A stretch of DNA of 64,000 nucleotides from Bilabrum cf. latius (taxonomy: Eukaryota). Each line of letters starts with the position of its first letter. Positions within the stretch are counted from its first letter, which is position 1. The stretch lies in NCBI GenBank assembly GCA_965178125.1, contig OZ237735.1, forward strand, positions 2,418,001 through 2,482,000. Reading direction: 5' to 3'. The position numbers were made by a program, and so were the translations under genes. The notes under the pieces were generated by a model. The model was given only the letters and a program-made list of their open reading frames with translations. It did no database searches and had not been told where the DNA came from. Below are positions 1-64,000 of the stretch, one piece after another.

Positions 1-3000
1 CCAATCGCAGCTTCGGAACTACTGGCCGCCTTGGTGCCAACAGGCTCGCTGATCTTGCCCGCACAGATCGCGTGCAGTCTCGACAGGCCCAGCCTCTGAG
101 CCAGTGCGCCCAGCTCCCCTCTTGTATTCCCACGCACTCGCACGGTGTCCATGTACAGGTACGTGACGAGCGCACCGAGAGTTCGATCATTTGCACCGGG
201 CAGCACAATCTCCAACTCGACTTGGGAACCCTCTGGGGCGCCACCAGCTCTAGACGCAGCAGCTGGCGCGGTACCATCAGCGGCTGCTGCATCCGACAGC
301 CTGGCACACACGACACAAGGTGGCAACTGCGTCTACCCTTTTCCTGCTGCCATCTCCCTGTGCTTCATTCCGCCCCTCCGAGTTCGCCTCGTTGGCTTTG
401 GCTTCTTCTACGTTGATACCGTTGCGTCCGCATCAGCGGCAGCCGGTGCCGATGCCAGCTTCGCCGCGGCGGCTCTCTGCTTCTTCTTCATTCGCTTCTG
501 TCGCATTTTCTTGGCGGCTTCGCGCAACTCGCTGGCGGCATCGAGCGACAGCCCGCCCACTGCTGCTGCAGGCTTGCTGCCAGGCCCATTGCCACCAGCA
601 CCCGCAGCGTCTTCGCCGCTGTCGCTGCTCGCCGCTGCATCGCCGGATGCCTGGCCTGGTTTCCACCTCAATCCGCCCCTTGCATGCAGAAAGGTACGTG
701 CAGCTGCCTGTGCCAGCTCCTCATCCACCTCTGGCACCCGCACAGACACACGGGCTTTGCCATCTGGTGACAGTACCGCAGCTCTCGCAGCTCGTGACGC
801 TGCGTCGGCCAGCAACGGGCAGCGTGCCAGCAGAATCTCGCCGTGCACAAGCAGAGGACCGCCCGATGGGACGCACGCCTGCGCTTTGAGCCCTTCGGCG
901 GAGTCTTCCACCGAATCTGCGGAGGCCCTCGATGCGTTGGGTAGCACGAGCCACCCAACCGGCTCGGCAGGCGCGAGGCCGCGTGCCAGCTGCGCGTCGA
1001 TGCCGCCGCTCTGGTACGATGTGCCGGTGGCACCCGGTTTGCTGGATGATTCACTGCCGTGCTGACCGCCTACATCCGTTACGTGACCACGAGCGGCCTC
1101 CATGGCAGAGCGGCGGTCCCCTCCTGCTCGCGAGGCCGTCGCCTCCGCTCGAGCCCTGGCAGCGTGCGCTGCCGACTTGCTCCTTGACGACCCTAGCCTC
1201 GATTCTAACCGCTGAGCTGCGCGCTAGAATTTTCCGCGGCTGACCCACGTGTATGAGTCCGGGTCTCTGTTGCTCCGCCTGCCGACGATGGAGTCGGCGT
1301 GTCCGGATATCATGTCCTGAAGCTCCTGGCGCATGCGACGCTCGCGCTGTTCCGCAGACCTCCTGGCTCGCTCCAGGGCGCCCGATCTTGCTCCACCATC
1401 GTGCGTGGCTGTGGTATCTGCTGCATGTCGCTGTGCAGCAGCCAGTGCATCGCTAAGCATCTCGGGAGACAGAGCGATTGCCACCGAGGACGAAAGCCCT
1501 CCACCCTCTTCACCGTGGGCCACGCCGGACCCAGACCCGCTGGCGGCCCCATGCCCGTCGCTTGACAGCGCACCAATCGTCAGCTGCTCCAGCAATTTTT
1601 TGGTAATCTTCACCTAACCAGCCCTCTTGGCAGGCCACAGGGACACTCCGGCCATGGACAGGAGCTCGGGGTCTCGCAGGAGAGGTGCCATCGACAGGCC
1701 GTGCCTGTCTCCAAGCGAGGGGCACGCGCACAGCATGTGCGAATCGCCGGCTCCGAACGCAACAACCCGGTGGAACGGCAGCGGCGCAGCCACCGGGGAG
1801 AAAGCGATCTGCGCAGACACCGTGCCCCTGCCCAGCACTCCCCAGCCCTGCCAGCCGAAGGTAACTAGCCTACCTTCGCGCGTGAGTGCCGCGCCCATCA
1901 GACCGCCCGCTTTCACTGCCGCAACTAGGCGATCCTGGCCTGCCATGGAGCCTCGCAGGGGCAAAGAGGCGCCTCCCGTCGCGTGCCAGTCCCCGCGCGG
2001 GAGCACAGGCCTGGCTGCACCGTCCGATGCGTCGCCTGCCGCAGCCTCGACCTCCTCTGGTTCCTCCTCGTGAGGCATCCCGTGCCCATCGTCTGCGAGC
2101 ACAGCCAGCACGTCCTGCGTGATGCCCAGGGCACGGGGCACGTAAAAGTGCGCCGACCTCAAGATTCTCTCGCCGTTCGACATGGTTGGTAATGCGCCCA
2201 TCTGGTGATACTCGGAGTGTCCCCATCCCCACAGCGTCCCATCCTCGGTCACGGCCAGCGAGTGGTTCTGTCCGCAGGCGATGTCCACGACGCGAGCCCG
2301 CGGCGGCACGAGCACAGCAGCCGCCCCGCGGTCTGGGCCCGCAAGCGACATGCCAAGTGAGGAGCCAGCCGCACCACCCGCCAGTGCGGCCACCCTCCCC
2401 TTCTCAAGCCTATCTGCCGCCCTTAGGTCTGGAAACGCGGCGAGCCGCGCGGGCTCCAGCCTCGTCCTGGCCACCCTCAGTCCCAACTGCCCAAGCCCGC
2501 CCGACCCGCACGCCCACACCCTGCCAGTGTCGTCCAGTAGCAGCGTGTGCGAAGCGCCGCACGCGGCCTTGCGTATCTTGGGCAGCGGTGCGTAGTGCTC
2601 CAGTCCGCGAGGAACATCACCGGCCTCGTTTCCCTCTCTGATCTGCCTAAAATGCGGGAGGGGGAACCGATGCCGGAGCCCTAGCTGACCCCTATCGTTG
2701 AATCCCTGGGACCATGCCCGCCCTTCGCTGTCCACGACAACCACGTGCCGATACCCCGCGGCCACGTGCTGCACCTTGACGCCCAGCCTCTACAGTTGCC
2801 TGTGCACCCTTGGTATGGGCACGTGCTCAATGCTGAGCTGAGCACCAAGCACTCCCTCGTCCCCGTCCTCCCGATGGGTACCATCAGCAGTGCCATCAGC
2901 TTTGACAGAGCCGGTGGAAGGGGCAGGAACCGCTGCAGGGGATGGGCTAACTGCTGTCCGGTGAGAGCCCGTCCGGTCGTCGCCGCCGTGGGATGCAGAC

Positions 3001-4002
3001 GATGAGGTTCGGTCAGGTGCAGTGGTACTTTCAGTAGCAGCGGACGACGCACGGGAAGGGTCGGCCTGCCGCGTAGGGGAGCCGCCAGTGGACGAGGCGG
3101 GTGTAGAGCTCGAGCCAATGCCCACCTTTGTGCCTGCCGCCAGGTACTGCATGGCCGACTTCACCACCATGCGCCTGACCGAGTCGCGCGGTGCTTCCAC
3201 GGCCAGACCCGGAAGCACGATCTGAGCCATTTCGAACTCGCGGTCCTCCTTCTCCTTCTCCTTGTCTTCGCTGCCTGCGCCAGCGCCGGCACCGTCACCG
3301 CCAGCCTCCTCTGAGGCTCCAACCTTCTTGCCTTCACCTCCAGCCGTTGCCGCTGCAGATGAAGGGCTTGCATCCGCGCCAGGCGACGACAGCTTGCCTT
3401 CTTGGAATCGGGTGCCCCACTCGTACAGCGCCCCCTCGTCATCCCACGCCAGAGACATGGTCTCGCTCGCGCAAATGCCAGTGATTCTTTTTCCCAGCAG
3501 CTTCTCGATTCGAACGGGCTGCCAGCGAAGCACCAAATCGTCCTGCTCGTCAGAGCTTGGCTTCTTCGCTTGCCTTGCAGATGCGAGCAGAGGCACTTCT
3601 CTGCCAAGCTAGCCTTCCACAGCTCTGCCGAACGACATGACGTGTCCCGAGCTCGTGAGCACCAAGGTATGTCCTGCGCCCCCTTCTATATCAACAACCG
3701 ACGTTCCATCGAGCATATCGTTCAGTCGAGGCTCAATTTCCGAAAAATTTCGCTCCTGCCGGCTGACCCGCCCCACCAGCCGTTTGCCATGTTGTGTCAG
3801 CGGCGACTTATCCGCAAACCCAAGCTATCCGTCCATATTTCGACCCCATGCAAATGTCTGTGAATAGAAATACAAATAAATTTGTTATTGACATTGTTAA
3901 AATGCGGGTCGAACCTTGCGATCGAGTAAAAGTGCCCCTAAGAACGAGTGAAGGTGCTTTCGTAGACCACATGAAAGGTGGTACTATAGAACTTACAGAC
4001 AT
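1..4002 (-). CDS. RCC1-repeat + BTB/POZ domain protein (3' end runs off the window); exon 4002-3997, intron 3996-3858, exon 3857-<1
   Basis: ATG TCT|GTAAGT...TTCACAG|ACA TTT GCA TGG gives MSTFAWGRN. ORFs 2790-3596, 1614-2774, 1224-1613 and 408-1103 share one frame and are separated only by TAG. RCC1 motifs: AWGRNMDG*LG, SFGRAVEG*LG, GFNDRGQLG, ACGASHTLLL, ACGQNHSLAV. Split BTB motifs: VHGEILLARCPLL and LGALVTYLYMDTV...LAQRLGLSRL. Confidence 0.85.
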
Positions 4003-4233
4003 TAGAACAGCTCTACCTTGTAATCAATTTCCTTTACCTCTATTTGCGCCAATTTTACAAAGAAACCGTCTGATGTTTCTCTATATAAAGGGAAATATGA
4101 TTGTCCCGATCCAACGAGCGTACGCTGAAACGTGTGACGAGTCCAATCCCGAAACCCGGAACAATCCCACCAAAACCGGAACCGTTTGTCGAATTGTCCT
4201 GCTGCCTGCTGCGCAGCGTATTGGTGGAGGTTT

Positions 4234-5859
4234 TCAGTACTGCAACTCATCAAGCCTTCCAAATGTCCCTTCGAAGCCGCCCGACAAGAGCACCACGTGC
4301 GCGTGGTCGCAGTTAAACGCCAGGCTGCCAGCCGGCCCCACGGCACCTCTGCCAGAAAATGACGCAGGTCCACCATGCAAGCTGTCTTCCCTCCTCCCAG
4401 CCTCGCTTGCTGCGTGAAACCCCTCCATCCATCGTCTGGCTGTCTCGGCCAACTTCACCGAGTACACCGGGTCGAGGGGCAGCCCTCGCTGCAGCCACTC
4501 GTGCCAAGCCGTGCGAACCCCTGCGTTGATGGCACCGAAGCTCTTCGCTGTCCATGGCCGATGCACCAGCACGGGCAAATCCAAGTCCGGGAGTGTTGGA
4601 AGAAGCCTGCTTGGAGTTTCTTCGGCCGCGGCCCAGGCCGAGCACGTGCTCGGTGCTCGCTCCGAGCAAGTGCTTGTCGACACTACGCTCGCTTTCAAGC
4701 GACACCGCCGCCACGACCCAACCGCATCCGTAGCCATTCTCACTACTGGCACCATGTCCGATACAGCATGGCACGGAATCCAGGCCGATCCTGATTCCGA
4801 GCCTGCGACTCCCCTGTCGCGCTTTGCTGCAGCCAGCACTCCAGCGTGCAGATCCCCGGCGACATCCACGACATGGAACACAGTGCGGTGCGGGCTTGAT
4901 TCAGTTCCAGCCAGGAAAGTTAGCAAGGATCGCTCGCCCTCCACTGCTTGCTTCCCATGCAATGCGGCTGCGGCACGCGCCGCCATGGCAGCTGCACCCG
5001 TGCCCGTGCCACAATCCATCCACACGTGCAGCATGCGCGGGCAGCCTGGTACGCACACCCGGCGGGCACCGCTTGCTTCGACGCGTGCCGCGGACGAGGC
5101 GGGGGCGGAGCAGGAGAAGGAGAAGGCATCTCGCCTGCGTGTGGCCGGCAACTTCCAGAAGTCGTGACCCTGGGCAGCCCGTGCCACCTCGAGGAGCTGA
5201 TCAGCCGCACCTTTGGCACCCTCGGGGCACGCCGCCCCTTCCGGGATGACCAGAATGGCGCTTCCATGCCGACCCCCAGCACCGCAAGCGGCGGTGTCAT
5301 GACCTGTGCTGAGGGAGTGCCTCACCAGCGCGGGGTCGTGCAAAGCGTCGTACATTTGCTAAGTAGATGGCCTGCCCTCCTCTTTTTGCAGGCGTACGGA
5401 CCAGCATGGGCCGGGTGAAGCAAGGCTCTCGAATGTGGACGTCTCGAGCTCGATCACTCTGGCGTCTGGTCCCTTCCCATACAGAGTCGCACTCACAGCA
5501 GTATTGCCGTGAACAGCCACATGGGCTTTACGTTTCGGAATACCAAGCCAAGGCCGTACGCCGCGCTGGGCAAGCTACAGCCCGAGAGACACTGCATTAT
5601 TGGATGCCTGCGATCCAGCTATAATGACAGCATCAGAAACGGACAAGTCAGCTATCAAGGAAGCCAGTCCTGCTGTTTTGTGTTTTTTGTTTCCGTTGGC
5701 ATATGGAGTGCCGCTGTCTCCCCTAAAAATCCACCCTTTGCAGGTGGAGCCCGGGAAGCTGGCGGGCAGTTGCAACAGTGAGCAATTCAGACGAATGGCC
5801 GGTCTCTTGCGCCAACAAGTGGTTAGAGATAAATTACGGGGACGAGCCGCCGTAAGCAT
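4234..5859 (-). CDS. PLP-dependent ACC deaminase / D-cysteine desulfhydrase-family protein (divergent)
   Basis: ORF 5575-5859 joins ORF 4234-5355 in frame through TAGs at 5575-77 and 5359-61 and ends in TGA. Motifs: NGNKKHK (PLP-lysine GNKxRK-like), GSQASNNA, IPEG, DCGTGTG, LDPVYSVK. Confidence 0.7.
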
Positions 5860-5984
5860 TCATTCGTAGAACGCAGTGCATACCAAAATAGCCGTGCCCC
5901 GTGCATTACCGGAAGCCAACACTGTGCCCAGCAGCCTGAGTGGGCCAGCACAAGTTTGTCGTGCGTGTGACGTCCCATCGCGGG

Positions 5985-8900
5985 ATGCAACGAAGTTTCT
6001 GCTAGATAGTGATACTTATCCTTGCAGCATGTACGATTCACGGTGCGAGAGTTAGGCTTTCAGCCTCCGAGGCAATTGAAATCTACCAAGATGCTCTGCA
6101 GAATGCATCCATCACGACTTCAGAACCAGTGCTGCTGACTGGGCCGGTTGGTTCCAGCCACGCAAGGTTCCTGCTTGATACTATTGAAGCTGGGAACGAC
6201 TGCATGGTCTTGGTCGGAGAAGCCGAAGAGCTGACAGGGGCAGCGCTCGCGCCGGGTGCCGGCGCAACTATACCAATCCGACTGGTTGCTGTGCCCGAAG
6301 TGGTTCGAGGCAAATCCGATGGATCCAGTAGTAGTGTAGTCGCTTAGATCGTGGAGCTCCGAGGTTTGCGCCCCGGAAGGCTGTACGCAGTGTTCGTTGT
6401 TCCGACGAGCGAGTGGGACGATGCCATCTCCTCTCGAGGTCTGAATGACCTGGTCAGCGACACGGCCGCAGACCTTTCTCTTTCGGTCATTGGAGGGAGA
6501 ATGGACCTTGATTCGTCTTGGTCGGAACTGCGCCGCGGAGCCGTGCGTTTCCTCCCTCAAGCCGGCCACTCCCCCGAGGCCGAGCAGGCAGCGCAGCGGC
6601 TCGCTGCCTTGCTCCATCGGCGCGTGATCGGCAGACCGCACGGGTCCCTGCCCCCTCAGCGATCCGCTAATGCCCTTAAAATATTGAATCGAGAAGGCGA
6701 GCAGGAGCTGGTCCGCGCTCCGTGGGAGCAGTCCATGGACACGTACTCCCCTCCCTTGCTGTTCCGCACCCACTGCAACACCCAGCCTGAACCACCGACA
6801 GACCAAGAGGCACAACAAACGCAAAGCACAGAGGATGCGTGCCCGCCCCACATCGTTCAGATGGCAGAGGCCGCCGCCAGAGGGGATGGCCCAGCCCCGG
6901 TGCATCGCATGGTGGTGACCTCCTGCGACAGGTACGTCGAGGACCACGACGAAGGCCTCTGGATCGAGCTGCTGACCGCCATGCCGGAGCTTGACGCGGC
7001 CGCGCAACCAGCCAGGGCAAGAGGGGCCGGCGCAGGCAGGGAGGCAGGCGCGGCGCTCTGGTCGACTGCGTTCATGGAGGGAGACAACGTGTACATGGAC
7101 TGGGCCGCTGCCTACCTGCTTGCCCAGAACGTGTCCAGAGAGCCCCACGAGCTGCGGGGCGCCTACAGGGCCTTCTACAGGGCGAGCTACAGCAGGCCGC
7201 TGATGCGCCGCTTCATGCGCAGGGGTGCGCATTCCATGGTGGGCGATGACCACGAGGCAGTGAACAACCTCAACCGCTGGATGGATGCGGCTGGGACGGA
7301 CCACCCGCTGGACAGCAAGGGTTTGCTCGAAGGTTTGGCCGTTTCGCATCACGCGGGTTCAAAGGTCAGTCTGAAGTCAGTGGTGCGGGCAGCCAGGGAG
7401 GTATTCGCGGAGTACCAGCTGGCGCTGACTAGTCCATGGCGGACGAGCGAATGGCTGGCTGCCCGCCGCGGCGGCGAGGTCGTCGCGCCGGTGGTGCTCC
7501 ACCTCGACGCGAGTCCGACGGAGGATAGCCGACGGCCGAGGCAGGAAGAGCAGCGGCTGAATCGAGAGGCTGGCGGTGTGCGTCTCCCTCAGAGCACGTC
7601 GTCCATCATGGACTCGGCTCTCCTTGCTGGCACCAGGCAAAAAGGCAAGCCCTCGGGGCAAGCCACAGAAACCGCGACCAGCGTTGACGGTCCCTCGAGT
7701 TTCTTCTCCATGTGGCTGGGACCCACGGTTGTTCTCCAAGTAGACACGAGGTGGCAGCGGTCCTTCCTGCCGGACCCTTTGTCACCCTTCATCGGCAGGC
7801 AGCAGATCGCGCATGCAGCCAGCGTGCTCGCAGCTGCCGAGCAGTCCGGCGCGGTGCGCGACGTCGTGATTCCGACCAGCGTTCCAATGATGTGGATGGG
7901 CTACAAAGAGGCAGACGTTGCCTACTACTTTGAGAACGACGAGTACGCCACATACAGGCACAACCTGCCTAGCAGCATCGCTTTGCTGGAGCTCGTGTCT
8001 GCGTCCAGCAAGGTGTCTTACCTGATCGGTGGTGACGTTCACTGCGCATCACGGAATGCCGTGTGCAGGACGGACTGGGACGAGCTTCGAGCAGCAAAGA
8101 AAGCGACTGAGCTGTCGCAGAGCGGGGCTTCCTCCACCTTGATGGACGCCAGCAGTGGCCTCCGGGACGAGGACGTGGTGCCTGGGGATCCCGACGCCGG
8201 GCTGGCGGTGTCTGCACTGCAGCGATTTTTAGGGCCTCTGCTCACAGCGGAGCGGACTCCAATTGCGGACGCCAGAAGCTTCCACCTCCAGGCATTCGTA
8301 CTGCTGGCAGATTCGATGGCCACGCCTTCGTTCTGGGCATAGAGCGAGCGGAGTACAGCGGCCGTCTGCTCGAAGTGCCTCCGGACTGCGCTCAGGCCGA
8401 TGCTGTCACACCTGGCGTCAACACAAGAGGGAGGATTGGAGGCAAGCGACGTGGAGGCGTTCACGTCAGATTCGGGGGTCGTTCTTTCGAGCAAGCTGCT
8501 CGATGCCATTGGTGCCGTGCAGCTCGATCACAGAGAGAAGCGATTCGTCATGACCAAGCTAGCGGCGCACGCCTGCCTCCGGGCATTCGTGCTGGGCAAG
8601 GCCAAGGCCAGCCCAAAACTGGCGATGCCCCTGGCTAGCCTGCCCGACTCGTCCCGGTGCGTGGCTCACATGGTGTCGAGCGGGTCCACGACGAAGAGCA
8701 CCTCACTTACCAGCAAGGTCATCATCGCCTTCAACTCGCTGCTGCAGCACGGGGGGCCCGTAAGGGCCGGGCCGTGGGAGGCAGAGGGCAGCTTCCACCC
8801 TAGCGTGAACACAATCACCATGTAGTTCGACCAGTTTGTGCCGCGCACTGGCAGGCCAGTGCGTCCTGCAGATGATCGGGGAACAGGCTTGGTGTCCTGG

Positions 8901-10016
8901 TCCGGTGTTGCGACGGGTCGGGGTCGACGGTCCGTGGTTTCAGTCCCTGCTTTTGCGCAGGACGGGCAGTTGATCAGGTAGGAGGAGAGCTCTGCGCGAT
9001 TCGTGCGACTGGATTGGTACGAAGAGCAAGATCGGGTGCGAGGTGTTTCCGACGGGCAGCCCAGGAGGTTCGGGGTGACGCACGGCCAAGGTGGGTGGAA
9101 CCGTCTGATGTCTGGGTTTTGGGTCGCTGTGGTTGAGACCATTCGAAATGGGCTCGCTAGCGGAGTGTGGGGTGTACACATCGACCCGAGAGATAGCTTG
9201 ATTGGCCATGGAGGCACCCGCCGCCCGGAAGCAGTGGGTCTGTTCGAGGAGCGCTCCTGCAATGCACTTGTTCCCTCGGGTGACCCTAACGGTGCGCCTC
9301 AAGTCTCGCAGCTGGGCGTGCCTGTGGGATCATCAGTCGAGATTGGTACCGCTGGGAATCTTTCTGCCGTTCTTGCAGTCTCTGCAGTGACACCTTCGAG
9401 GGACCCAAGGCTGCACAGGGTTTGGTGCGAGTGCGGGGCGAGTGGCAGCGGCAACTTGCAGTACGCAGCGTGTCACCGGGCCACTCCGACAGCCGAGTTC
9501 GCGCTCATCCGTCTGCTGCAGGTGCGCGGTGACTTGGCCGTGGTGGCGGTGTGTGGGATGCTGGGGTGCATCGCACTGTCGGTATGGGCTGCGGCTTTGA
9601 TCGCCCAGCACTGGGGAGAGTCTGTGCTGATGCTGCTGTTTGGCGGGCCAATTTCGCTTGCTTGGAAAGTGTTCACTGACCCAACCACTGTGGTCAATGC
9701 CTTGATCGGCACACTGCTCGTGTGGGGTGTGTGGCTGCTGGTCGGGTGGGGCATTGTGGTGGCTGTGCCGGCCGAGTGGCTGCTAGCAGTACGAGTGAGC
9801 ACTCCTTGGGCGTCTTTGGTTCTGATGAGACTATGCTTCTGGGTGGTCCTTGGGGGTACATCCTTCTTGCTCGCTGTGATGGTGGCTCTGGACCTGGCAG
9901 GAAAATCTCCCGATGTGGGTGGAACTGCGACCGTTGTGGTGGTCGCAGGGTTGGTCAGAGGCATCCTGTGGCTAGGCGATGCTCTTCCTGTGCAAGGCGC
10001 TCTACCGAGCCCGTGA
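5985..10016 (+). CDS. PhoD-like metallophosphatase with signal peptide and C-terminal TM helices (~1,343 aa)
   Basis: One frame from ATG 5985 (MQRSFC*IVILILAAC, signal-peptide-like) through TAGs at 6003, 6345, 8340, 8823 and 8979 to TGA 10014-16. Motifs: TSCD, EGDNVYMD, GDDHEAVNN, VDTR, IGGDVH. About 4-5 hydrophobic helices lie near the C-terminus. Confidence 0.75.
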
Positions 10017-23676: not shown

Positions 23677-23828
23677 GGCATGCGCAAATATTTAAACAAA
23701 TGGCTGCACGATTGTAGAAAGAGTATGAAAATTATCTATGTTGATCTGCTGTGTGCTGTGGTAATCGTGACGACGACTCAGTCCAATCCGCACTGGTGGT
23801 GCGCTGATCCGGATTCCGGATGGACCTG

Positions 23829-26747: not shown

Positions 26748-26954
26748 GCAATTTACAATGTCTCTGACCTCTGGGGTTGGCTTCTGTGTGCCACCGAAGC
26801 CGTTCCTGGCAAAATTGAAAATGTCTATCTTCATCTTCAATATTGTATGCCCGGTTGCAACCGTCTTCCGGACGCGCTCAGGTCTGCTCTTCTCACCAAT
26901 ACTTCAAGGAGCCAACCAAAATTATCCTTCATGAATGTTTGAGCTGGAGCAAAC

Positions 26955-36210: not shown

Positions 36211-36266
<56 letters not shown>

Positions 36267-37101: not shown

Positions 37102-38658
<1,557 letters not shown>

Positions 38659-41295: not shown

Positions 41296-41336
<41 letters not shown>

Positions 41337-42893: not shown

Positions 42894-43229
42894 CCTGTTC
42901 GCTTGGGAGCAATGGAATGCGTTCCATGAAAGCCAGACTCCAGCTTCAAGAACGCTAGCCTTGCTTGTCAACACAACCACAAACTCTGTGATTTTCAGAT
43001 GAAACAGCGATAAACAAAGAGTTTATACACCGCAGACAGACCTAATTGTGTAGTTATGTCCTATTTGATCGAGTATGGGATTTTATTTGCGAGTTGCCGA
43101 TCCACACAAAAGTGCATTGCACGATAGCACGCTGTGGACGGGACAAGAAGCGGTTGGTTTCATCGAACTGGATGGCGAGATGAAGCAAATGTTCGCGCAT
43201 CTAGGCGTATTTCTTGAAGTATTTTAAGG

Positions 43230-51500: not shown

Positions 51501-54500
51501 TCGCCGTGGCTGGAGCCTTCCCTGTGAACGTCATCCCCAAAACTGTCGAGCTCGTCAGAGACACCCTTTGATACCTCGTAGCGATAGTCACCGGAATCAT
51601 CAGACGGGCTGCTGTCGCTCAAGTCGTCGCCACCGTCGCCCGAAGAACCAGGCGCAGCGCCCGGTCTTGATGCTGTCGCGGCGGCCGCTGCCGAGACCTC
51701 TGCCACTAGCCCTGCAATGGCAGCCCTCTCCTGGTGCATTGCATTGCGACGAGCCCGCTCCACCGCCAGCTCCACGGCAGATCTCGCCTGCAACTCAACC
51801 ACCGGGACGTGCTCGTCCCCGCCGGTCGAAGTCGGTGCAGCCCCGCCGCCGCTGCCAAGGCTGGCACGCACGCTCCTGCCGCTTCCGCTGCTCAAAATGG
51901 CAGCGAGCGCGCTGACACTCGGTGGGCGCCTAGTCGCGCCGCTCTCCAGCTCGTCCAGAACCCCAGCGCACTCCTTGACCACGAGGCTGTACACGCTCCT
52001 CAAGAGCTTCCCCGAGGCCATGCTTGCCATCTGAGAGGGCGGGGGTGCGTTCCTGGACGCAAGGATCTCCGCCAATACGGTCGCCAGTTGGAACTCAACG
52101 GATCCATCCACGTACACGGCGTCGTGCCCACGAGTGGAACCGGTGGACCCCGCTGTCCGTGAGGCGCCCATCGAGAGCCCAGCGGCCTGCCTCGCGCTCG
52201 CAAGCTCTCGCACGTACAGTAGCCTGCTGCAGCCCAGCCGGATGGCACGAGGATCGTCGCTTGGGCGGGGCCAGCTGCTAGCCTACACTGCACTGGCGGC
52301 CTTGCGCTCACTGGTGCGGCTGCCCTCGGCAATCCACGTCTGCAGAGGGGAGGCAGGAGGCGCGTCATCGGCGGGAGCAGCAGCAGCGGCAGCGCCATTG
52401 GCGGCAGTGCGGTCTGCACCGGTGCCGGTGGACTGCTCCAGCTATTTACGGACCGTGTCGTGCTCTTCGAGCACATCCTTGTCTTCGCCGTTGTCCCCGA
52501 ACTCTGCCACATTGCCTGCACCTGCCTTCTCCTCCCTCTCGGTTTGCAACGCGTCACCCTCCTTGCTCTCGTAGCTCCCGGCTCGGTCACGGCTGCCAGC
52601 CGGCACCCTGCCGCCGCCTCCTCGACGCACTCGCTTGCCCACTCGACCGCGGCCTCGCCCTCCTGCAGCGAGAGACACCGTCACAGGCGAGGCAAATGCG
52701 TGCAGCCCCTTGGTTCCCGCTGGAGACTTGCGGGGCATCGTCAGGCCGCTGCCTCGCCTGGCCCTTCTCTTCTTCGCGGCCTTCTTGTTTCCTGTGGGGC
52801 TAACACCGACGCCGGTGCTTTGACCGGCCTTGGAAGGCACCGAGAATGCGTCCACGCTGCTGCGCTCTGGGCTCTCGTCTCGACCGACTATGCCCGCCGG
52901 TACAATTTCTCGAACGGTGCCGGAGTCTTCGTCTTCACCTCCCACGCGAGCCTCTGCATGGCGGCGATGGTGGTGGTGCTTGTTGTGTTTGTGGTAGTGA
53001 TGGTGGTGGTGATGGCCCGCCAGCTGAAGGCCCCCGGCCGGCACCCCGCTCGGCAGCCACTGCTGCTCGTCGTCGTCCCAGTGCTCCAGGCGCGCTTCCC
53101 TCAGAGCAGCCACCTCCGATGGCGCGTACACCACCACGATCGGATCGTCAGCCGACCTCCCGCCGGCGGCGCTGCTGGCACCATCGTCCCGCTTGTGCTG
53201 CTCGTTGAGAAGATCAACGGCCGTGTCGTTCACGGCCTTGGCGCTGGGCTCCTCATCTCCCTCTGCGAAGAGGAGCCTGGCGAGGGATGCAGCAACAAGG
53301 GAGGGGCACGTGCTGCTGTGCTGCCCCTTCCGCCGATGACCTGCGCCGTCGCCCGCCGCAAAGCCCGTCCTGGTGCGAGGGGATGCGAAATCAGGAGACA
53401 TTGGAGGTACGGCAATCGGCTTGACTCCAGGCGAGTGCATCGGGCTTCGCATGTCGAAAGCTCCGTCTTCTTCCTCCGAGCCGGCGGTGGACGCTGCCAG
53501 CACGCCGCCCCCCATTCTCTTCCTTGGGAGGTGGGTGTCCTCCCCAGTTCCAACACTCAGCGAAGAGCCGCCGAGCGTGTCCCCCACCCCCGAACTAAGT
53601 CGCTCCCACTGCTCCCGAAGCCAGGCGGCCATGGCCTGCGACGACACGTACACCGCGTCGAATCGAGTGGGCACGCCTCTCCGCACGGACTCTGCGGCAT
53701 CTCCCAGGCTAAAGACAGGCCAGACCACCACCTGCAGCCCGGACTGGGCGGCCACCTTTTCGATCGCAAGCATCATGTAGGCCTGCCGATCGGGGCTCGG
53801 CTCCGCAAGCAGCACGTTGATGGAGGCTGCCTGCGCCTTTGCCTCGGGCAGCAGACCGCGCTGCAGCACCCGCTGCAGAGCCGCCATGTCTCCTCGAGCT
53901 CCCGTCTGAGGACCTGTCTCCACCTGCGACTTGGAGCCGAGCAGGCCGCCGAGCTTGCTGGTGACCCTGGCGGCGAGAGCGTGCCGAACGGCCCTGGATT
54001 CCTTGCCAGAGAGAACGTCCGCAACCAGCCGGCCAGTCCCATCGAGCTACTCGGCTGCGCGCCGCAGGGCCTGCATTGTGCCGTGGTCCGGATCAGAGAG
54101 ACCCGCAGTGGCGCCATGACCGATGGCCCCCTTGGCAGTAGGAAGAGCATTGGACGCAGCAGTGACAGCATCCAGCACCCATCGCTGCAGGACCTGTCGT
54201 TCGGCGTCCAGTGCAGAGTCTCGTCCTTCGGCTGCTGCTGCGTGCTCCCGCTGGTCATCGAGCTTGCGCTGCTCGAGCGCCTACGCCACCATCTTGTAGG
54301 CCTCCAGGGCCACTACGGATGCGTCCGGTTGTTTCTATTGCTGGCGCGCCTTCGATCGCGATGTGTGGCCGGATGCGCTGCTGCTGCGATGCTTGCTCTT
54401 GTGGCGACTCGTGCTGTTTCCTTTTCCGCCGCGAGCGCCCCGGTTGGAGTGTCGATCGCTCGTCGAGCGCCCACGCTGGTGTCCCCCACCTCCACTGCCC

Positions 54501-56396
54501 TTGCCGCTGCCCCTGCCCCGCCTGTGCTTGCTCTTGGCAGGTGCACTGTGGCCTCGGTGCGCTGCCGCAGCACGAGCACCGCTGGCACCTGACCCGTGCT
54601 TGTGGCGGGGCCTGGCGCTTTCTTTGTTCTCTGGGCTCGCGAAGGTTCGCCTGGAGCCAGCCTTGGGAGACGGGGGCCCCTCCACATTCACAACCGCGCC
54701 GCCGTCGTGATTGCCGGCGAGGTTGAGGCTGAGTGCGCTGTCGTGGTACTTCAAGGCTGCATCTTCGCCGCCTTCCCGCCTGGAGCTGCCTCTGCTTCCG
54801 GCGAGTTGCTTGTCCCCAGCCCGGGCCCGCACTCCTGCCTTGAGCACCTGGAACCGCATGGACCACGAGAGGATGCCGTACAGGTTCTTGGCGACCAGGT
54901 CTGCCACCCCGTGAGCTGCGAGAAAGACATAAAGAGGCAGGGCATGCATCAAGCTGGGCTGGGGGCGGGCTAAGGCCTGCGGCTCGTCTCTGTGCGCCAA
55001 GGAGATCGTCCGTCCCAACTGTCTCGCGAGGGCGCCGGTAGCCTGGCTGGCAGATGCAGTATATACCACGAGAGATGCGAGTGCCGGCATGCTGGACCTG
55101 ATAACAAGTGTGTGCAAACTTGCTTTGGAGCTTGCGCGCTCTGCTCACCTACTTTGCTGGAGTTGCTCGAGATGGCTCCGTAGCCCTCCGGGCCCAGAAG
55201 GAAGAGCACCGGGAATGAGCCCCAGCCGAAAGCGAAGCACAACGAGCCTGCGACGTGGAGTGAGAAATGAATGTATCTAACTGAGTTGAAGCAGACTAGC
55301 CTGTCTGGAGGTCGAACTCGCAGCTTAGCGAGGCACGCGTGTTGATGTCTCACTCAGCACCAGCATCCGCTTGGACTCTTCCGTGGGGTACGTCCCGTAT
55401 GCCGTAATGAAGGACTCTGCTACAGTTTTGAAAACAACGAAGCCTGCGCTCGCCCCCAGCACGAACAAAATGGCCTTGAGTGTGTCGTTTGAGGTGATTG
55501 CAGCTGCCATCCCGAAGACGATCATCACCTGGTCTGCAATGATAGCGACCAGAGTCTTCGCCGGGGATCGATTCTTGATGCCTGCGCCAGAGGACGATAT
55601 GTGCCAGCTATTAAGAGTACAGCTCATGTGCCATGGGATCGCCGGCACATTCTAGGCATTCCATCAACACGGCGTTGTTGCGCCCAGACCGATTCTCACC
55701 AAGCGGTAGATTCGTCAAATGAATCAACTGAATCAGACATGTACACATCCATGAGCTATATCTCAAGAAAGGGAACTGATTGCCGGCTTCCAAGCGAATT
55801 GCGGAGGCTGGGCCCAGGATTACTCGAAGCAAGTAAAATATAGCCTCCACAGTCACTACGTAGATCTGCAAGATGTAGGCTATTTAGTCTGATGAAATAA
55901 GCATTTGGCTAACGATCAAAGCCTCGAGTATGCCTATTTGAACACATCAGTCGACCATCTGATGTGTGCACTTGAGCACAATACCTTCTCTCACGTTCTC
56001 CCAGCTCGCAGAGTTGTGATACGTCCGCTGGTACCAGAAAAAAATTGCTTGAAATGCACTAATCAGAGTAACCACAATCCCTGCGATCGATAGAAAGTGA
56101 TCTAGCACCGGATTGCAACACGACGCATCGGAGTGAAAATGGCAAGCATGGTTCGCTTCCCACCGCGAAATTTAACGAAAACATCACTGCTCTCAGTAAC
56201 TCTCAATTATTGAGAGATCGGATGGCCCATCCACTTCCGTACACGGATGGCAGCCAGAAAACAGATCTGTGGCCCGGCTTCGAGCGCCTTGCTGATGATC
56301 GACTTGTGCCGTAGTTTGCAAGCCAGTCTTACCGACAAATGTTCCAGTATCCAGTTGAGGTCCGATCTCATCATTTTCATCTAGTCGTCGCTGCAT
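48512..56396 (-). CDS. Channelrhodopsin (anion-channel-like) with ~2,100-aa cytoplasmic tail containing a receiver-like domain; exons 56396-56333, 56080-55995, 55865-55700, 55581-55354, 55247-55149, 54915-48512 (~2,348 aa)
   Basis: Five phase-consistent GT-AG introns assemble SWENIYVVTVE (TM2), LRYSSWMCTCLIQLIHLTNL (TM3), IIADQVMIVFG (TM4), GWGSFPVLFLLGPEGYG (TM6) and HGVADLVAKNLYG (TM7, retinal Lys). The last exon stays open across about 12 TAGs to TGA at 48512. Confidence 0.88.
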
Positions 56397-56660
56397 CTAG
56401 AGCCGATTGTATGCACTCAACGACTGCTGTTGGGGTCGCAAGGATTCCGGGCTTGCCGTCGCCCGATCGGGCCGTCGCGGCGGCTTCGTGGTCGCAAGCG
56501 GCTCAACACGCCGTCCACCATACCCGCATTCGAGCTCTAGCCGCCGCAGCAAATAACCCGTAGGGCTGTTGCAGCAGCATTTAGAGTGGTTGTTTGACGT
56601 GGTGTGCGGGCTGCCACAGACTGTGAACAAAGGCTGTCAGGCCTGAGGTGAATCTCTGAA

Positions 56661-57668
56661 ATGGGGCTTTGCGCATCAAGCGAAGAGGTGGAACGTAAGT
56701 CGCCAGGATACTGCCTTGGCAATAAGTGGCAATCTTGCATTGATCTTGTTCGTCGTTAGTGCTAGCATTCGTTTGTTTCCGCGTCTTTTCTTGTTTGTCA
56801 TTGTGTTGCAGCGCGGCGGGCGGCTCCCCAGCAAGGCAGAGGCGGAGGGCAGAACGCGTCACAGTACCAACGAAATGGGGCAGGTCAAGCTGCACAGGCC
56901 AACGGGGGGCCCCGAAGCGGGGCGGGTGCCGTGCACGGCACTGGCATACTGCGGCCCTTGGAGCCGTGGGACAATCCAAGCGGCCCCATCGCTCAGTCCG
57001 TGCTGATAAGACAAAGGCAAGAATTTTGGGAATCGCGCGTGACAGGCGCGAAGATCGTTTGGGACAATTTGAAGGTGGTGTGCGACTCCTTGCTGAACGA
57101 TCCGCCAGAGTACGAGTCCGCTTCGGCCATCCTGGAGGCTGCGTAGCTGCGCGTGCCGCAAGGCACGCTGAATGAAGTGTACGACGCTCGGGGGAGGCGT
57201 TACGATCTTCCTCCTTTTGTGTGGTCCACCCCGCGCAACGCCATGTCTGACGAGGAGGTGGCCCGGCAAGAGGCCGCCAAGCGGAAGAAATTCATAGGGC
57301 CGGTGAAACCGCTCAAGCTGCTCGCCCGGCTGTCCACGACCGACACCAAGCAGGAGCAGACCATCGAGGTGACCGTGAAGAACAACAGCACCGCCGCGGA
57401 GCTCAAGCAAGCCATCCACGAGTTCCTAAAGACGGGGCAGGCGGACAAGGGCAAGGCCGAGCGCTCTGTGAACGTGTGGGCCCCAGAGGGCCTGCCCCCC
57501 GCCATGCAGCGCGTGTTCTTCATGGGCAGGGAGATCGGGGAGCACGATCACATGCAGGGGGCCAAGGTGAGCGAAGGCTTCGTCGTGCAGGTGTTCATCG
57601 CGCAAGGTGCCAGGGCGGTGGCGGGGGCGGGCGGGGCGGCTGCGGCAGCTGGCGGGGCTGGGTCCTAA
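56661..57668 (+). CDS. Ubiquitin domain-containing protein (UBTD1/2, DC-UbP-like); exons 56661-56694 and 56812-57668
   Basis: MGLCAS (myristoylation/palmitoylation-like N-terminus), phase-1 GTAAGT...TTGCAG intron, RQEFWESRV..VWDNLK, AA*LRVPQGTL.EVYD..G.RYDLPPF, C-terminal ubiquitin-like QRVFFMGREI. Ends in TAA. Confidence 0.85.
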
Positions 57669-58002
57669 GCACTGTGGCGACAGGGGTGGGGAGGGGAGAG
57701 TCTTGATGGTGCCTTGGTTGAAAGTATTAGTTGATGGTTCTGGCCTGGTTCCCCGGAGAATGGGGAGGACGAGGGGGGGTGGGGGTGATCGAGCAATCGG
57801 AGAATCGATACCCAACCATGATGGGCCCAGACGGCGCCCGGCCCGCTGCCGTATGAAGGTCTTCTTTCTGTGTTGGTGATGAAAGCGGGTGCGCAGCTGG
57901 CCAAATGCTCGGTGTGTCCGTTTTGCAGCTTAAACAACACTTCTTCTCATGTCAGTTTCAGTAAACGAAGCCGAGACGCGTGCGCCGCCCCATGCACTGC
58001 CT

Positions 58003-58139
58003 CATGCGCCTAGAGGCCCTGCATGCGCCTAGAGGCCCTGCATGCGCCTAGAGGCCCTGCATGCGCCTAGAGGCCCTGCATGCGCCTAGAGGCCCTGCAT
58101 GCGCCTAGAGGCCCTGCATGCGCCTAGAGGCCCTGCATG
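58003..58139. repeat. 19-bp tandem repeat CATGCGCCTAGAGGCCCTG x7
   Basis: Seven perfect head-to-tail copies between convergent gene ends. Confidence 0.95.
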
Positions 58140-58156
58140 GCCTCGTCCCCCGTGAG

Positions 58157-61041
58157 TCATTCAACGCGCCTGCTCCTCTGCGACCTGTCTGGCACGCCGA
58201 TCGCGGCGTGCAGCACCAGCTCCCTGTATGCAGCCTCTTGGCCCTGCTCCCCGAGCAAGTGCTTGCCGTACAGCCCCAGGCCAGCACGACCCGCCGCCCC
58301 ACCCTATCCCTCCTACCCACCGCCACAGGCCATCCCCCCCACCATCGCACCCAAAGAGTCGGGTTTGCCGGGCCGCAGCACCAGGCACGGTCGGCGCGAG
58401 GGCGGGCATCCTATGGCGCGCAAGCCCCGTCTGGCAGCCCCCTGCGCCTCGGGGAACACAAAATCAGAACCCCGCGCCGCCTCTCTAGCGTGGCTCGGGC
58501 CTGATCGCCGCCGGCTTGACGAAGACGAAGAGGACGAGGTGGAAGGCGCCTCCACCGCCACGCTGACCTCGGCATCGTCAGCTGTGGCGAGCGTGTCTGT
58601 GTGTCCATCAGTCAATTGGCTGGCGGTGCGCCTCGCCGGGTAGGAGGAGCTATAGGACTGGGTGTCGTCTAACCCGAGCCGCACCTCGATCGCTGCATCA
58701 GCTGCATCCACCCATGCACTCTTGGCACCAGCATGTGGCAGCTGATGCAGCACGCCGTTGCTGCCGAATACTGGCCCGCGTGCCTTCATCGAGTCTATCC
58801 CGTGCACGCGACCCATTGCTTTGAGGGGCAGCTGAGCGCTCAGAACCGTCGGCGCTCCATCACTTGCGTCTTCGTTGCGCGCCCCCCCCCTCCTCGCGCT
58901 CCCTGCGATCCGGCTGCGGGCGGCTGGCCGCCGACCGCCCAGCTGCCCATCTGCGTCCAGCTCCGATGATTGAGCCCCCGACCAGCCCCACACGTCATCC
59001 ATGCCATCATCACCACCCCCATTCCCACTGCCGTCCCCGGACCTCGCTTCAAGCCGATGCACGCCTCCAGCACGTCCCGCTTCATTGATTCGGTCAAACC
59101 CATCGTCTGCAACCGCCGCTGCTGACTCTCCGTTCCTCGCCCCCGCCACACCCCGCCTCTCGCCTTCCCCACTACCTTCATCATCCTCGGATGAATACGA
59201 CAGGGAGGAGGACGAGGTGGTGGACACGAGAGCATCGGCCGGGATGCCTAGCTGCTACGCCAGCCTTGCAGTAGCGGCATAGGTAGCGGCACGCCTGGCT
59301 CTCCTCTCCTCTGTGGCCGCCAGTGCCCTGGACATAGCTTCGACCCCAGCGGTGGCGCGAGCAGGTCCTCGTCCTCGTCCTCGTCCTCGGGCTCCTGCTC
59401 CTCTCGAGCTGCCGGAGGCCGCAGCCATCTCGATGCCGCTGCTACTGCTACTACGGTTCCTGGCGCGGCTGCGGCCATGGCTGCCGCTATAGCTGCTGTC
59501 TTCAGCTCGATGTCTCCTTGGTCGCCTCAGCTCGTTCCCTCGCACAGTGCGTCTCGCAGGAGTTGCTCGGCCGGCGGGAAGAGTGTTTCGAATGCTAGGA
59601 TCCGAGTCCTGTCCATCACTGGCCGACCGCACCCTTCCAGCTGCCCCCACCCCCGCCCCTGCCCCCGCTCCACCTACATCCCTTCGAGACCCGGCTGATA
59701 CACCCCGGGCCCTGCCCCTGCCCCGGCCCCTCAGCCTCCCACCCGTGCTGCCGTCCAAAAATTCCCCCAGCCCCGCTTCCCTCATCCCACTTCTGTACCC
59801 CAGCGAGCGCACGGACCGCTTCGCAGGGAACACGATCAGCGTCCTCAGCGCGACCACGGCCATCAGCCCGTCGCCAATCTCGGCCAGGACGAAGGCCGCC
59901 CAGGGGTACCGGCTCTTCCTCGATGCAATGAGCGCGCACAGCATGCGAAGGGCACAATAGTACATAGTAGTGAACTGCAGAGACCTGGCGTGTCCCTACT
60001 GCTCGTACACCGCGCGCTGGTTCAGGAATGCAGCCGAGGGGATGTCGTCGCGGTGCTCGACGACAAAACGGAGCAAATTCTCCAGGCGGCCAGTCGTGGT
60101 AGAGGAAGCATAACACCCACAAAATACAACAATGATCGCGCAACTGCCGGCCATGTATGATGCTCCCAATTCAGTAAAGCCCAGCACCAGATTCGAGGCG
60201 ATGTGCAATGCACAAAATGCGGGGGCGACCTGAGTGATGAGGAAGGGGAGGTGCCAACACGGTTTATAAATTACTACGCATCGCAACGGAGGGAAGTTTC
60301 GGCGGATTACTGCGCTCTTACCACCAGTAGCAGCCTGCGGTGCTCCATCAAAACTCTCCGGACAGTGATCGCAAACCCGAGGCAAAGCATCAGCAGCATG
60401 CTGAAGCGGCTGGAAGCATCTAATCCAGCAATAATGCCCATGAATACTCTTGGAAACGAGTATTGGCTGCAATGTCCCATCGAGCCGACCTCCACGAACA
60501 AACTTCCGCCGCAACCAAACCTGCGAAGCATGAAGACCCGGGTCCCGGATGGAGGGGCAGCGCGATGCTAGGAATGAAGATCGTTATGCGTGCTATCTAT
60601 GAGCCAAAGGAACGCTTTCCCTCGCGTCGGGTTGAGCTCACGATACAACAGTAGCGGTGGTTGCCGATGCGCACTTCAGCAGCATACCAACTAATACGAT
60701 TGTCCTCGTCGATGCCAGGTGCCTGGACATGTTATCACTGACCATGAAATTGGCACAGAACAACTGCGCTATACATAGGTTGAAATTGGGCTCAAAACAA
60801 GCCATAGGTTGACCGACACCGCCAAGCTGCGCTTCACTTCACTACCGGACCATTTCGGGCTCACTGCAGTCATCCATGACACTGCTACCACTGCACCGAT
60901 AGCTAGTGATGGCGATGATCCTTGCTCAACGCCTGGATCGAATTCTTGGTCGCTGAAGGTCACATTCATGTGGAATCGCGTGAGAATGCCGCCGGCCATG
61001 AAAAGCAGGCGAAGGCCGCACAGCACGACAGTGCATTGCAT
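58157..61041 (-). CDS. Multi-exon multi-pass membrane protein (possibly GOST/TMEM87-GPR107-like) with low-complexity tail; 5' exon structure uncertain
   Basis: The last exon from about 60228 is open through TAGs (59996, 59255, 58313) to TGA at 58157. An upstream exon encodes RFSMLLMLCLGFAITVRRV. Several hydrophobic helices are present. Confidence 0.45.
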
Positions 61042-61141: not shown

Positions 61142-62154
61142 TTACTATCGGCCATGGCTCACGCCAAGCACCTCACTAGAATCGCCAGATGCTCCCTCGC
61201 CCACGCACCCCTCGGAAGCGCCGCCGCGCTGCAGCCGAGGGCCGCTCCTCGACCCGCCAGCCAAACCATTCCTGATCGCAGAGGGCAGGGAATTCCGAGC
61301 TGCATCCGCCCAGTCCCTGGCTCCGTCCACCAATTGCGAGCTGGCGGCCAGCACCGCGCACGCCAGCCTCGCCGACACCGAGGCGCCACCCTGGTACATG
61401 CACAGCTCCTCCGCGCTGGCCAGGGGACTGGATGCAATCGCTGACGAGGAAGAGGACGAGGCACCACCCAGAAGCATCTCGGTGCCGCTGAGCTCCCCAG
61501 ATCCCGCCCGGCGCGCCGTCTCGTCGGGGCGCCTGGGTCGCAGCGGGGGTTCCAGCTTGTCGGCTTGCATGGTCGGCGGAGGCTCGCCGTGGATGAGCTC
61601 GTACTGCTCCCTAAGCTGCTTCTGCTGCAAGTCTTGCATAAATCGAGATATAAACAACACGAAGCCCTCGATGACGGCCAGGAACATGGCGCCCATCAGC
61701 GCGCTCCGTCCCATCGCTCGAGGACCTGCTCGAGCCGCCAGCACGCCACCGGTAAGGCCACCGGCGATGATTGCATTCCAGGCATCCTCTGTCTTTCGCA
61801 CTTTAGTCAGAGTGCAATCGAATATACTGAACATCATCCCCCACACCGCAAAATTGCCACCGAGGACGGGTGCGCGCAATCGCACTCGTGTCAAGCCACC
61901 CATAAATTTCCTTCCTTTAGGGTAGTTGCGAACCCCCATGATAAAATGCCAAACAGACCCTCCCCCCGCACCTGCGAGACATGGCCATCGAAGTGCATGA
62001 GTTGGCATAGAGTGCGACGTGTGTGGCAAACACAATCGTGGCCCATCCGTACACAAGATTGCAACAAAGTCCAAAGGCCAGTGTCCTCACCTAGTATATA
62101 ACCTCCTCCAACATCCTAGAAAATTCGCCATGGGCATGCGATCCGCTCCTCCAT
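61142..62154 (-). CDS. TIM17: Mitochondrial inner membrane translocase Tim17 with C-terminal extension; exons 62154-62091 and 61971-61142
   Basis: MEERIACPWRIF*DVGGGYILG|AGGGSVWHFIMGVRN...RAPVLGGNFAVWG..FS.FDC....RK.ED.WN.IIAG..TGG.LAAR.G. The 3' end reads TAG-TAA. Confidence 0.9.
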
Positions 62155-63145: not shown

Positions 63146-63290
63146 AGGAACAGTGCCGTTTGGTCCCAATGCTCTGTGCTGCGCGTTGCATTGGATTGCA
63201 GGAGACAAATTTCGTTATTCGCTGGTTCCTGCATCACATCAGTGCAAGCGCGCTCCGCCACCTTTGTCCAGCTCCTCATGACACACCACG

Positions 63291-64000
63291 TCACACCTCT
63301 TGCGCGCCCCCAATCGCCGCCATGCACGCCTCTCTGTCCTCCAGGTCGAGTTCGCTCAGCAGCAGCGCGCCCTCCGGCAGCTCCCACGCCGTCTCGCCCG
63401 ACACCAGGCTGCAGAACCACTCGTCCTCCTCGTCGCTGTACCGCCTCACAACATCAACACCCGCCCCGCGGGCTGACTCAATTAGCTCATCTAGCAGCTC
63501 CTGCTGCTCGCTTGGCAGGCTCGCTTCGCTCGCATCGTCCCCAGGCCCCTCCTCCACCCCCTCCTCATCCCCCTCTTCTCCGTCCTCCTCCTCGGCATGC
63601 TGTTCGACTCCCACGCTCTGGCCACCCGGAGAAGCACCCCCTCTGCTCTCGCTGCCACCATCACTACTGACGCTCCCAGCATCCTCGCGGTCTGACTCCT
63701 GATCATGCTCCCTGGTGGTTCCATCGGCCCCAAGCTCGCCGGCTCGGATGCGGCGGACAAGCTCCCCCACGTCCTCCGCCGAGACAGGCTCTTCAAGCGC
63801 GGCCAGCGCGCTCTCCAGCACGGCCCCTTCGTCCGGAAGGTGCCACTCGCTCTCTCCCGATTCGGAATTGACGTACCACACGTCGTCTTCGTCAGATTCG
63901 TGGCGGAATACGAGCATATCCATCGCGGCTGCATGCTACACTCTGTCCTCCAGCTCAAGCGTCTCGGATGCAGCACCAGACTCGCTGCCTTCGGTATCTT
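63291..64000 (-). CDS. 3' part of an acidic protein with repeated WW-like modules
   Basis: Repeats WYVNSESGESEWHLP and WFCSLVSGETAWELP. TGA at 63291; the frame continues upstream through a TAG at about 63936. Confidence 0.6.

Follow-up and report, generated by a model that had tools for sequence, protein, structure and literature searches.

How is UAG read in a genome whose genes carry TAG in frame again and again? This question is raised by a stretch of 64 kb from Bilabrum cf. latius (assembly GCA_965178125.1, contig OZ237735.1, positions 2,418,001 to 2,482,000), which was analyzed over its full length and is referred to here as the window. A sequence-only reading had proposed that UAG encodes glutamine (Gln, Q) in this DNA, while UAA and UGA remain stops, and within the window this proposal is supported by the residues of relatives, by frame counts and by the terminators. 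The best explanation is that the window represents nuclear DNA of a gene-dense, intron-poor protist rich in guanine and cytosine (GC), in which UAG specifies Gln and translation ends at UGA and, less often, at UAA; we place the probability of this reading at roughly 0.85. The GC content amounts to 61% overall and ranges from 57 to 64% along the window. Under the standard code only broken frames are obtained, whereas approximately 19 genes on both strands appear once TAG is taken as sense. Sixteen gene models then comprise 17,966 codons, i.e. 84% of the window, and genes of 1,000 to 4,396 codons emerge from fragmented frames.

Within the window, TAG is a sense codon. When TAG is opened, the largest stop-to-stop frames extend over 4,402, 2,210, 1,358, 1,294, 1,237, 1,236, 1,078 and 1,024 codons, while the longest standard-code frames measure 1,356, 789 and 664 codons. 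Opening TAA instead leaves the maximum at 1,356 codons, and opening TGA shifts it to 1,423 codons. In the 16 gene models, TAG is found 99 times in frame, 115 times in the +1 and 118 times in the +2 frame; the corresponding values are 0, 43 and 62 for TAA and 0, 280 and 326 for TGA. As the models were built free of TAA and TGA, their in-frame zeros are partly circular, a problem that does not affect a test of which stops join long frames. There, at least 150 open codons on either side were found for 17 of 817 TAGs, for 3 of 1580 TGAs and for none of the 333 TAAs. When the flanks are relaxed to 100 open codons or more, 41 TAGs qualify, 24 of them in frame within gene models, whereas the 20 TGAs and 4 TAAs that qualify are all antisense, off frame or intergenic. 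Dozens of same-frame open reading frames (ORFs) are indeed divided by TAG alone, as had been noticed initially, although the gene with the most such splits contains 16 rather than about 17. These are located in the genes at 10486–23676 (16 splits), 26955–30179 (14), 30267–33902 (12) and 48512–55117 (12), among others. Overall, TAG is roughly as frequent in frame as off frame and accounts for about 13% of the codons assigned to Gln.

The identity of the inserted amino acid can be approached through related proteins. Database entries of relatives consist of fragments only, because the respective genes break under the standard code. Nine such fragments with 75–95% identity cover 15 TAG positions of the window and carry Q at 11 of them, in line with an enrichment for Gln in TAG columns, the absence of which had been named as a refutation; the other four positions hold E (twice), T and K. 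For comparison, the CAA and CAG codons of the window keep Gln at 127 of 145 positions in the same alignments. Using an empirical substitution table derived from 3,588 other aligned positions, log10 likelihoods of −9.6, −25.0 and −29.1 were obtained for Gln, Lys and Glu, respectively, which places Gln ahead by more than 15 units. P0008–P0012 span 11 TAG positions of the 10486–23676 gene (8 Q, 2 E, 1 T). For the 26955–30179 gene, 84 homologs were found, and P0005–7 are fragments of relatives. At codon 162 of a gene encoding a ubiquitin-binding domain (UBD), the TAG of the window is matched by Q in P0004. The fragment ends are informative as well: seven fragments of close relatives terminate inside the gene, four at a Gln codon of the window, two at a TAG of the window and one at Lys, while Gln accounts for only about 4% of residues. 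Moreover, fragments of relatives with merely 34–52% identity stop exactly at TAGs 401 and 702 of the 26955–30179 gene.

A second line of comparison is provided by a metagenomic contig. Scanning metagenomes with the 26955–30179 protein yielded no relative, but a second scan retrieved one contig, termed L001 (6,139 bases, 54–62% GC), that is syntenic with positions 48512–60514 of the window and covers a channelrhodopsin gene, the UBD gene and the gene next to it. The extension of its channelrhodopsin contains 9 TAGs in 901 codons. Two TAGs of L001 in the seven-helix core are found opposite CAG of the window with identical surroundings, and two more in the UBD gene face CAG and CAA of the window. 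Conversely, two TAGs of the window, including that of codon 162, are located opposite CAG of L001. Among distant homologs, column 636 of the 26955–30179 gene shows Q in 16 of 22 sequences. Finally, paralogous repeats within the window carry Gln where neighboring copies have TAG, i.e. as GQLG, TGQI and GGQ/AGQ. Four of the TAGs listed for this purpose by the sequence-only reading are placed exactly, with the contexts G*LG at 3825–3827 and 3609–3611 (both minus strand), TG*I at 14050–14052 and VAG* at 17176–17178 (both plus strand). A fifth, assigned to a UIM at 36666, has to be corrected, since the plus strand reads CTA there and the TAG is on the minus strand; the L-TAG-Q-A motif is present at this site, albeit as a weak match (Pfam UIM, E 0.99). 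Judged from these comparisons, TAG most likely encodes Gln within the window.

TGA and TAA act as terminators within the window. The 17 models with their 3' end inside it stop at TGA in 13 cases and at TAA in four; the earlier tally was thus right for TAA and one too high for TGA (14). From the ratio of CAA to CAG (184/457 = 0.40), about 40 in-frame TAAs would be expected beside the 99 TAGs if TAA encoded Gln, yet none is seen, and no TAA connects long frames inside any model. The UBD gene stops with TAA at the place where P0004 and the L001 ortholog end as well, the latter with TGA. In addition, three transcript-like contigs stop 28, 44 and 53 bases past the assigned TGA, as would be expected if translation really ends at TGA. 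The 3' untranslated regions (UTRs) delimited in this way are very short (23677–23704, 28 bases; 30223–30266, 44 bases; 30180–30232, 53 bases), and the contigs of the convergent genes 26955–30179 (plus strand) and 30267–33902 (minus strand) overlap by about 10 bases.

These contigs stem from independent sequencing. Thirteen public runs contain the stretch, none of them listed as RNA, and contigs of four of them (X5–X8), which belong to three studies besides that of the best holder, were compared over positions 16000–35800. Of the 35 in-frame TAGs in this region, 34 are covered by X5, 18 by X6, 15 by X7 and 25 by X8, the last of which is DNA-like. The reported differences, four substitutions plus insertions, all fall away from the TAGs and the letters next to them, and no joint bypasses a TAG. 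The borders of X5 contigs correspond to gene borders (10362–23704, 26910–30232, 30223–33836 and 33964 onward, with the start at 10362 calculated back from a contig of 13,343 letters). Accordingly, the 10486–23676 gene is contained in this single contig, which ends 28 bases beyond its TGA. The depth of X5 varies between neighboring genes (49, 11, 12, 53 and 28), intergenic DNA is uncovered, and two GT..AG introns at 35231–35337 (107 bases) and 35565–35652 (88 bases) are spliced out. Because these two introns have been removed, we infer that X5 is an RNA-derived run, with which the gene-bounded contigs, the uneven depth and the intergenic gaps agree; its automatic label reads 'RNA? (probably DNA)'. 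All 14 TAGs remain unchanged in the X5 contig over 26910–30232, as do all 12 in the X5 and X7 contigs over 30212/30223–33828/33836, which originate from two different studies. In sum, X5 contigs that are spliced and bounded by genes retain 34 of the 35 TAGs without change, and these would hence persist in mature messenger RNA (mRNA), as the proposal demands. Since the TAGs are neither altered nor skipped in contigs of other runs, assembly error, editing and micro-introns are excluded for these genes, which contradicts the refutation that had been named for this case.

The X5 contig contains an extra A behind position 27099 in the part of the 26955–30179 gene that encodes the N-terminus. A relative's fragment, P0006, maintains the frame of the window across this position, and a contig error or a strain difference is more likely than an error in the window. 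Runs registered under four coded organism names in four studies (X1–X13) contain nearly the same sequence, with 0.4 to 1.0 of the sampled words present, and runs with the labels algae metagenome or protist metagenome contain small shares of it. Two causes are conceivable: the organism has been deposited under several names, or it is carried along in other cultures.

Not every observation favors Gln at UAG together with stops at UAA and UGA, and those that weigh against it have to be set beside the rival explanations. The notion that the code is unchanged and that the TAGs represent assembly errors, pseudogene decay, RNA-edited sites or tiny introns is extremely improbable. For it, no support was found beyond the existence of introns, which, together with 5' leaders, probably account for a few of the counted TAGs (e.g. 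codons 33 and 35 of the UBD gene). The frames are interrupted by TAG only and never by TAA or TGA, however, relatives keep their frames across TAG, and the same TAGs recur in the four other runs described above. If TAG is sense, it might stand for Glu, Lys or Tyr, as UAR (UAA and UAG) does in peritrichs, Blastocrithidia or Mesodinium. The four deviating positions in close relatives are relevant here (2 of 15 with E, 1 of 15 with K, in addition to the T), as are one TAG in a zinc-finger array where nine paralogous linkers carry Glu and one TAG column of a reductase-like protein that reads F, F, F and Y in the four solved-homolog alignments listed. Likewise, the RCC1 column is not specific for Gln, as solved HERC2 repeats carry Q, K or R there. 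Among the 22 distant homologs (19–30% identical) of the 26955–30179 gene, Q is the top residue in one of 13 columns with data and tied in one more, and pooled enrichment amounts to 2.8-fold for Q versus 2.3-fold for K. Most of the 23 listed TAG pairs of L001 read R, N, K, G, T, E, H, S or D, although most of these pairs reside in poorly aligned low-complexity sequence and L001 is more diverged. Yet, no single alternative is favored, and such exceptions are as expected if TAG arises mainly from CAG at weakly constrained sites. A different residue thus remains highly improbable, with Gln ahead of Lys by more than 15 and of Glu by more than 19 log10 units, TAG opposite CAG or CAA in identical L001 contexts, the predominance of Q in column 636 and Gln in the paralogous repeats.

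Two further alternatives concern the stops rather than the residue. UAG and UAA could both encode Gln, as in the ciliate, dasycladacean or Hexamita type, with TAA being scarce through the high GC content and TGA serving as the sole stop. This variant is far commoner in eukaryotes according to PMC5304391 and PMC11687900, and with 333 occurrences over both strands TAA is less frequent in the window than either other stop triplet; moreover, the verdict on TAA relies on four terminators, one of which belongs to the putative ORF 38766–40106. Considering that the same genes contain 43 and 62 TAAs off frame but none of the approximately 40 expected in frame, that no TAA joins long frames in the models, that four genes end in TAA and that the TAA end of the UBD gene matches the ends of two relatives, joint reassignment is very unlikely. 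A somewhat different picture arises if TAG is dual, i.e. Gln inside genes and a terminator close to the 3' end of the mRNA, as in Condylostoma, karyorelict ciliates and Blastocrithidia. The last 32 codons of the 17 models hold 8 TAGs versus 3.0 expected (Poisson P 0.013), distributed over 8 of the 17 genes, while Gln codons of the CAA/CAG type are as frequent there as anticipated (21 versus 19.4). One gene, encoding Tim17, ends in TAG-TAA, and the three 3' UTRs described above are short, a feature associated with position-dependent termination in ciliates with context-dependent codes. In contrast, every model runs to TGA or TAA, and an RG-rich repeat of the PIN gene carries on past its last TAG. 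The tail beyond the last TAG of the 26955–30179 gene is apparently conserved in P0029 (about 46% identical, aligned by eye), which argues for probable read-through at this TAG. The sample comprises 17 genes, and the surplus could equally stem from weakly constrained C-terminal tails or from former TAG terminators of an ancestor, across which translation may now proceed to the next stop. TAG may retain some terminator function near 3' ends, but a truly dual codon appears unlikely.

If UAG is decoded as Gln with UAA and UGA as stops, a simple mechanism can be envisioned. As UAG is sense while UAA stays a stop, a transfer RNA (tRNA) with the anticodon CUA would be required, following the logic laid out in PMC5304391: tRNA-Gln(CUA) pairs with UAG and not with UAA. 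This tRNA would probably be derived from tRNA-Gln(CUG) through a single anticodon change. Concomitantly, the N-domain of the release factor eRF1 would have to be altered, with the GTS, NIKS and YxCxxxF regions as candidate sites, in such a way that it no longer competes at UAG and still recognizes UAA and UGA. For comparison, a change in the GTS motif of eRF1 was proposed for Iotanema and a change at the equivalent of human Leu69 for a rhizarian, and the equivalent of human Thr32 is discussed as well (PMC5304391). ARAGORN detected no tRNA in the 64-kb window or in L001, and eRF1 is not among the genes of the window.

The genes of the window, read with TAG as Gln, are as follows.

3–3875, minus strand: RCC1-repeat gene (Pfam RCC1-like domain, E 4.7e-65) with 7 in-frame TAGs, 2 of them in G-TAG-L-G; 3' end beyond the window, C-terminus apparently BTB-like as judged by eye, probable intron upstream of 3875.
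4234–5859, minus strand: ORF of 541 codons without family match; 2 in-frame TAGs, ends in TGA.
5940–10016, plus strand: gene of 1,358 codons whose product weakly resembles PhoD and has a membrane region at its C-terminus; 5 in-frame TAGs, ends in TGA.
10486–23676, plus strand: giant gene of 4,396 codons; 16 in-frame TAGs, ends in TGA.
23829–26840, minus strand: PIN-domain gene of 1,003 codons; 3 in-frame TAGs, ends in TGA.
26955–30179, plus strand: EF-hand/IQ/WW/zinc-finger-like gene of 1,074 codons; 14 in-frame TAGs, ends in TGA.
30267–33902, minus strand: gene of about 1,200 codons for a low-complexity membrane protein; 12 in-frame TAGs, ends in TGA.
33964–34893, plus strand: RRM and STEEP1 gene, start taken from the transcript-like contig; 2 in-frame TAGs, ends in TGA.
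36633–36890, minus strand: short terminal ORF with the UIM-like motif (Pfam E value given above) and its TAG at 36666–36668; ends in TGA.
36721–38658, plus strand: gene for an array of C2H2 zinc fingers that also contains an (AGC)n tract encoding poly-Ser; 4 in-frame TAGs, ends in TAA.
38766–40106, plus strand: putative gene, an ORF of 446 codons without TAG and without family match; ends in TAA.
40417–42927, minus strand: gene of 836 codons, the C-terminus of its product weakly similar to NAD-binding reductases; 6 in-frame TAGs, ends in TGA.
43230–46928, plus strand: gene of 1,232 codons, weakly similar to methyltransferases; 8 in-frame TAGs, ends in TGA.
47382–48323, plus strand: NAD-dependent epimerase/dehydratase gene (Pfam E 3e-18), similar to cinnamoyl-CoA and dihydroflavonol reductases (best solved relative E 1e-43); 2 in-frame TAGs, probable upstream exon, ends in TGA.
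48512–56096, minus strand: channelrhodopsin-like gene with a seven-helix core (about 55144–56096, several exons), followed by an extension (48512–55117) of roughly 2,100 low-complexity codons that holds 12 in-frame TAGs; ends in TGA.
56661–57668, plus strand: ubiquitin-binding-domain and ubiquitin-like gene (Pfam UBD E 7.9e-23); 3 TAGs in the open frame, ends in TAA.
58157–60514, minus strand: low-complexity gene of 785 codons; 4 in-frame TAGs, ends in TGA.
61142–62008, minus strand: last exon of the Tim17 gene (solved Tim17, E 7.5e-31), N-terminus probably in an upstream exon; the sole TAG immediately precedes the TAA terminator.

The frames read through TAG match the Pfam families RCC1, cadherin, IPT/TIG, PIN, C2H2, RRM/STEEP1, UBD/ubiquitin and epimerase, whereas the Tim17 and channelrhodopsin products match solved structures; by this homology, the gene products of the window are identified as eukaryotic. 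A scan of the window at the Rfam gathering thresholds gave no family. Introns in the window are few and short. In four genes (RCC1, reductase-like, UBD and Tim17), the long ORF apparently lacks the true N-terminus, and homology starts past a pyrimidine-rich ...CAG (sites 3875–3890, 47280–47400, 56700–56830 and 62008–62090). This pattern, along with putative upstream 5' exons read from the translations of several genes, suggests that introns are concentrated at the 5' ends of genes. This would concern codons 33 and 35 of the UBD gene, whose TAGs are probably intronic: the stretch between the conserved start MGLCASSEE and AARRAAPQQG, which contains two TAGs, is not kept in L001.

Several of these genes display additional features. 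The 10486–23676 gene is uninterrupted and encodes a ConA-like domain, cadherin repeats, many IPT/TIG repeats, a Cys-rich region and a multi-pass membrane tail, the last with weak TRP-like and DUF5373 matches. In the zinc-finger gene, the (AGC)n tract at 37377–37502 specifies about 55 serines, and a GA-rich repeat of the dinucleotide type is located upstream at 36100–36300. Solved channelrhodopsins match the window exon 55144–55257 with E 1.5e-6 and the L001 ortholog with E 3e-13, the best of them being green-algal cation channelrhodopsins. The gene in L001 (positions 1–3731, minus strand) lacks at least one of the core introns present in the window. We take this gene content to be unlike that of a ciliate macronuclear genome or of a fornicate with reduced mitochondria. 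Atlas clusters gave discordant leads on the lineage, with fungal clusters at a score of 0.93 for the UBD protein of a relative and an Oomycota-rich IQ/EF-hand/WW cluster at 0.78 for a distant homolog; the green-algal matches of the channelrhodopsin do not place the organism either.

What does this code mean beyond a single genome? Sequence comparison suggests that at least four diverged relatives share UAG as Gln, which would make it a trait of a clade. The window represents a real and well-supported code variant, probably in a new lineage of an already known kind. A more far-reaching proposal, plausible but tentative, is an independent origin of UAG-to-Gln-only reassignment outside ciliates and fornicates, spread throughout a clade of GC-rich, intron-poor, channelrhodopsin-bearing protists that use UGA as the main stop and in which TAG possibly terminates near short 3' UTRs. 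Here, the clade comprises at least four relatives with a divergence down to about 45–65% protein identity. If this holds true, the clade would be a living intermediate between full reassignment and a context-dependent code, as well as a tractable system for studying how UAG becomes uncoupled from UAA. Since several diverged members are present in public data, the origin of the code could be dated by comparison. In practical terms, annotation of this genome and its relatives with the standard code would shatter most genes, and the database proteins of the relatives are already such fragments.

The comparison with known systems places the window close to a small group of codes. The most widespread stop-to-Gln variant, UAR-to-Gln (NCBI table 6 type), is found in many ciliates, some Ulvophyceae, Hexamita, Streblomastix and Amoeboaphelidium protococcarum (PMC11687900, PMC5304391). 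It shares with the window the reassignment of a stop codon to Gln and the retention of UGA as a stop, but differs in that TAA is not sense here. Amoeboaphelidium, the sole opisthokont reported with this variant, has genomes of 40% GC (PMC10608142) versus 61% in the window and is rejected as the source on this ground; Nuclearia thermophila, which was compared as well, has 44% GC. The context-dependent codes of Condylostoma, karyorelicts and Blastocrithidia resemble the window in their short 3' UTRs and in that the reassigned codon is overrepresented towards the ends of genes; unlike these, the window has dedicated terminators, TGA and TAA, that never occur inside genes. The same codon with the same meaning, TAG-to-Gln, a mapping named genetic code 15, is furthermore known from crAss-like and other phages (PMC9523058). 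There, however, recoding is viral and depends on suppressor tRNAs late in infection (PMC9523058), whereas the window contains cellular eukaryotic genes with introns.

The claim that UAG-only nuclear reassignment is rare agrees with PMC11687900 and PMC5304391, in which very few nuclear codes separate UAG from UAA. UAG-to-Gln with UAA kept as a stop is described there for the fornicate Iotanema spirale, the ciliate Protocruzia tuzeti and two phyllopharyngean lineages. No such nuclear code was found beyond Iotanema, Protocruzia and phyllopharyngean ciliates in the searched literature, a collection that includes few subscription journals. As in the window, UAG specifies Gln in these lineages, UAA and UGA terminate, and a tRNA-Gln with the anticodon CUA along with an eRF1 weakened at UAG would be expected. 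Hence, each new UAG-only lineage tests whether this route, a CUA tRNA-Gln combined with a UAG-blind eRF1, recurs. The window differs from them by its 61% GC, by about 19 genes in 64 kb on both strands, by spliceosomal introns, by a canonical Tim17 and by a channelrhodopsin. Its main stop is UGA (13 versus 4 UAA), whereas UAA dominates in Iotanema and in the rhizarian (PMC5304391). A GC-rich, non-ciliate clade with UGA as main stop would thus broaden the conditions under which UAG-only reassignment occurs.

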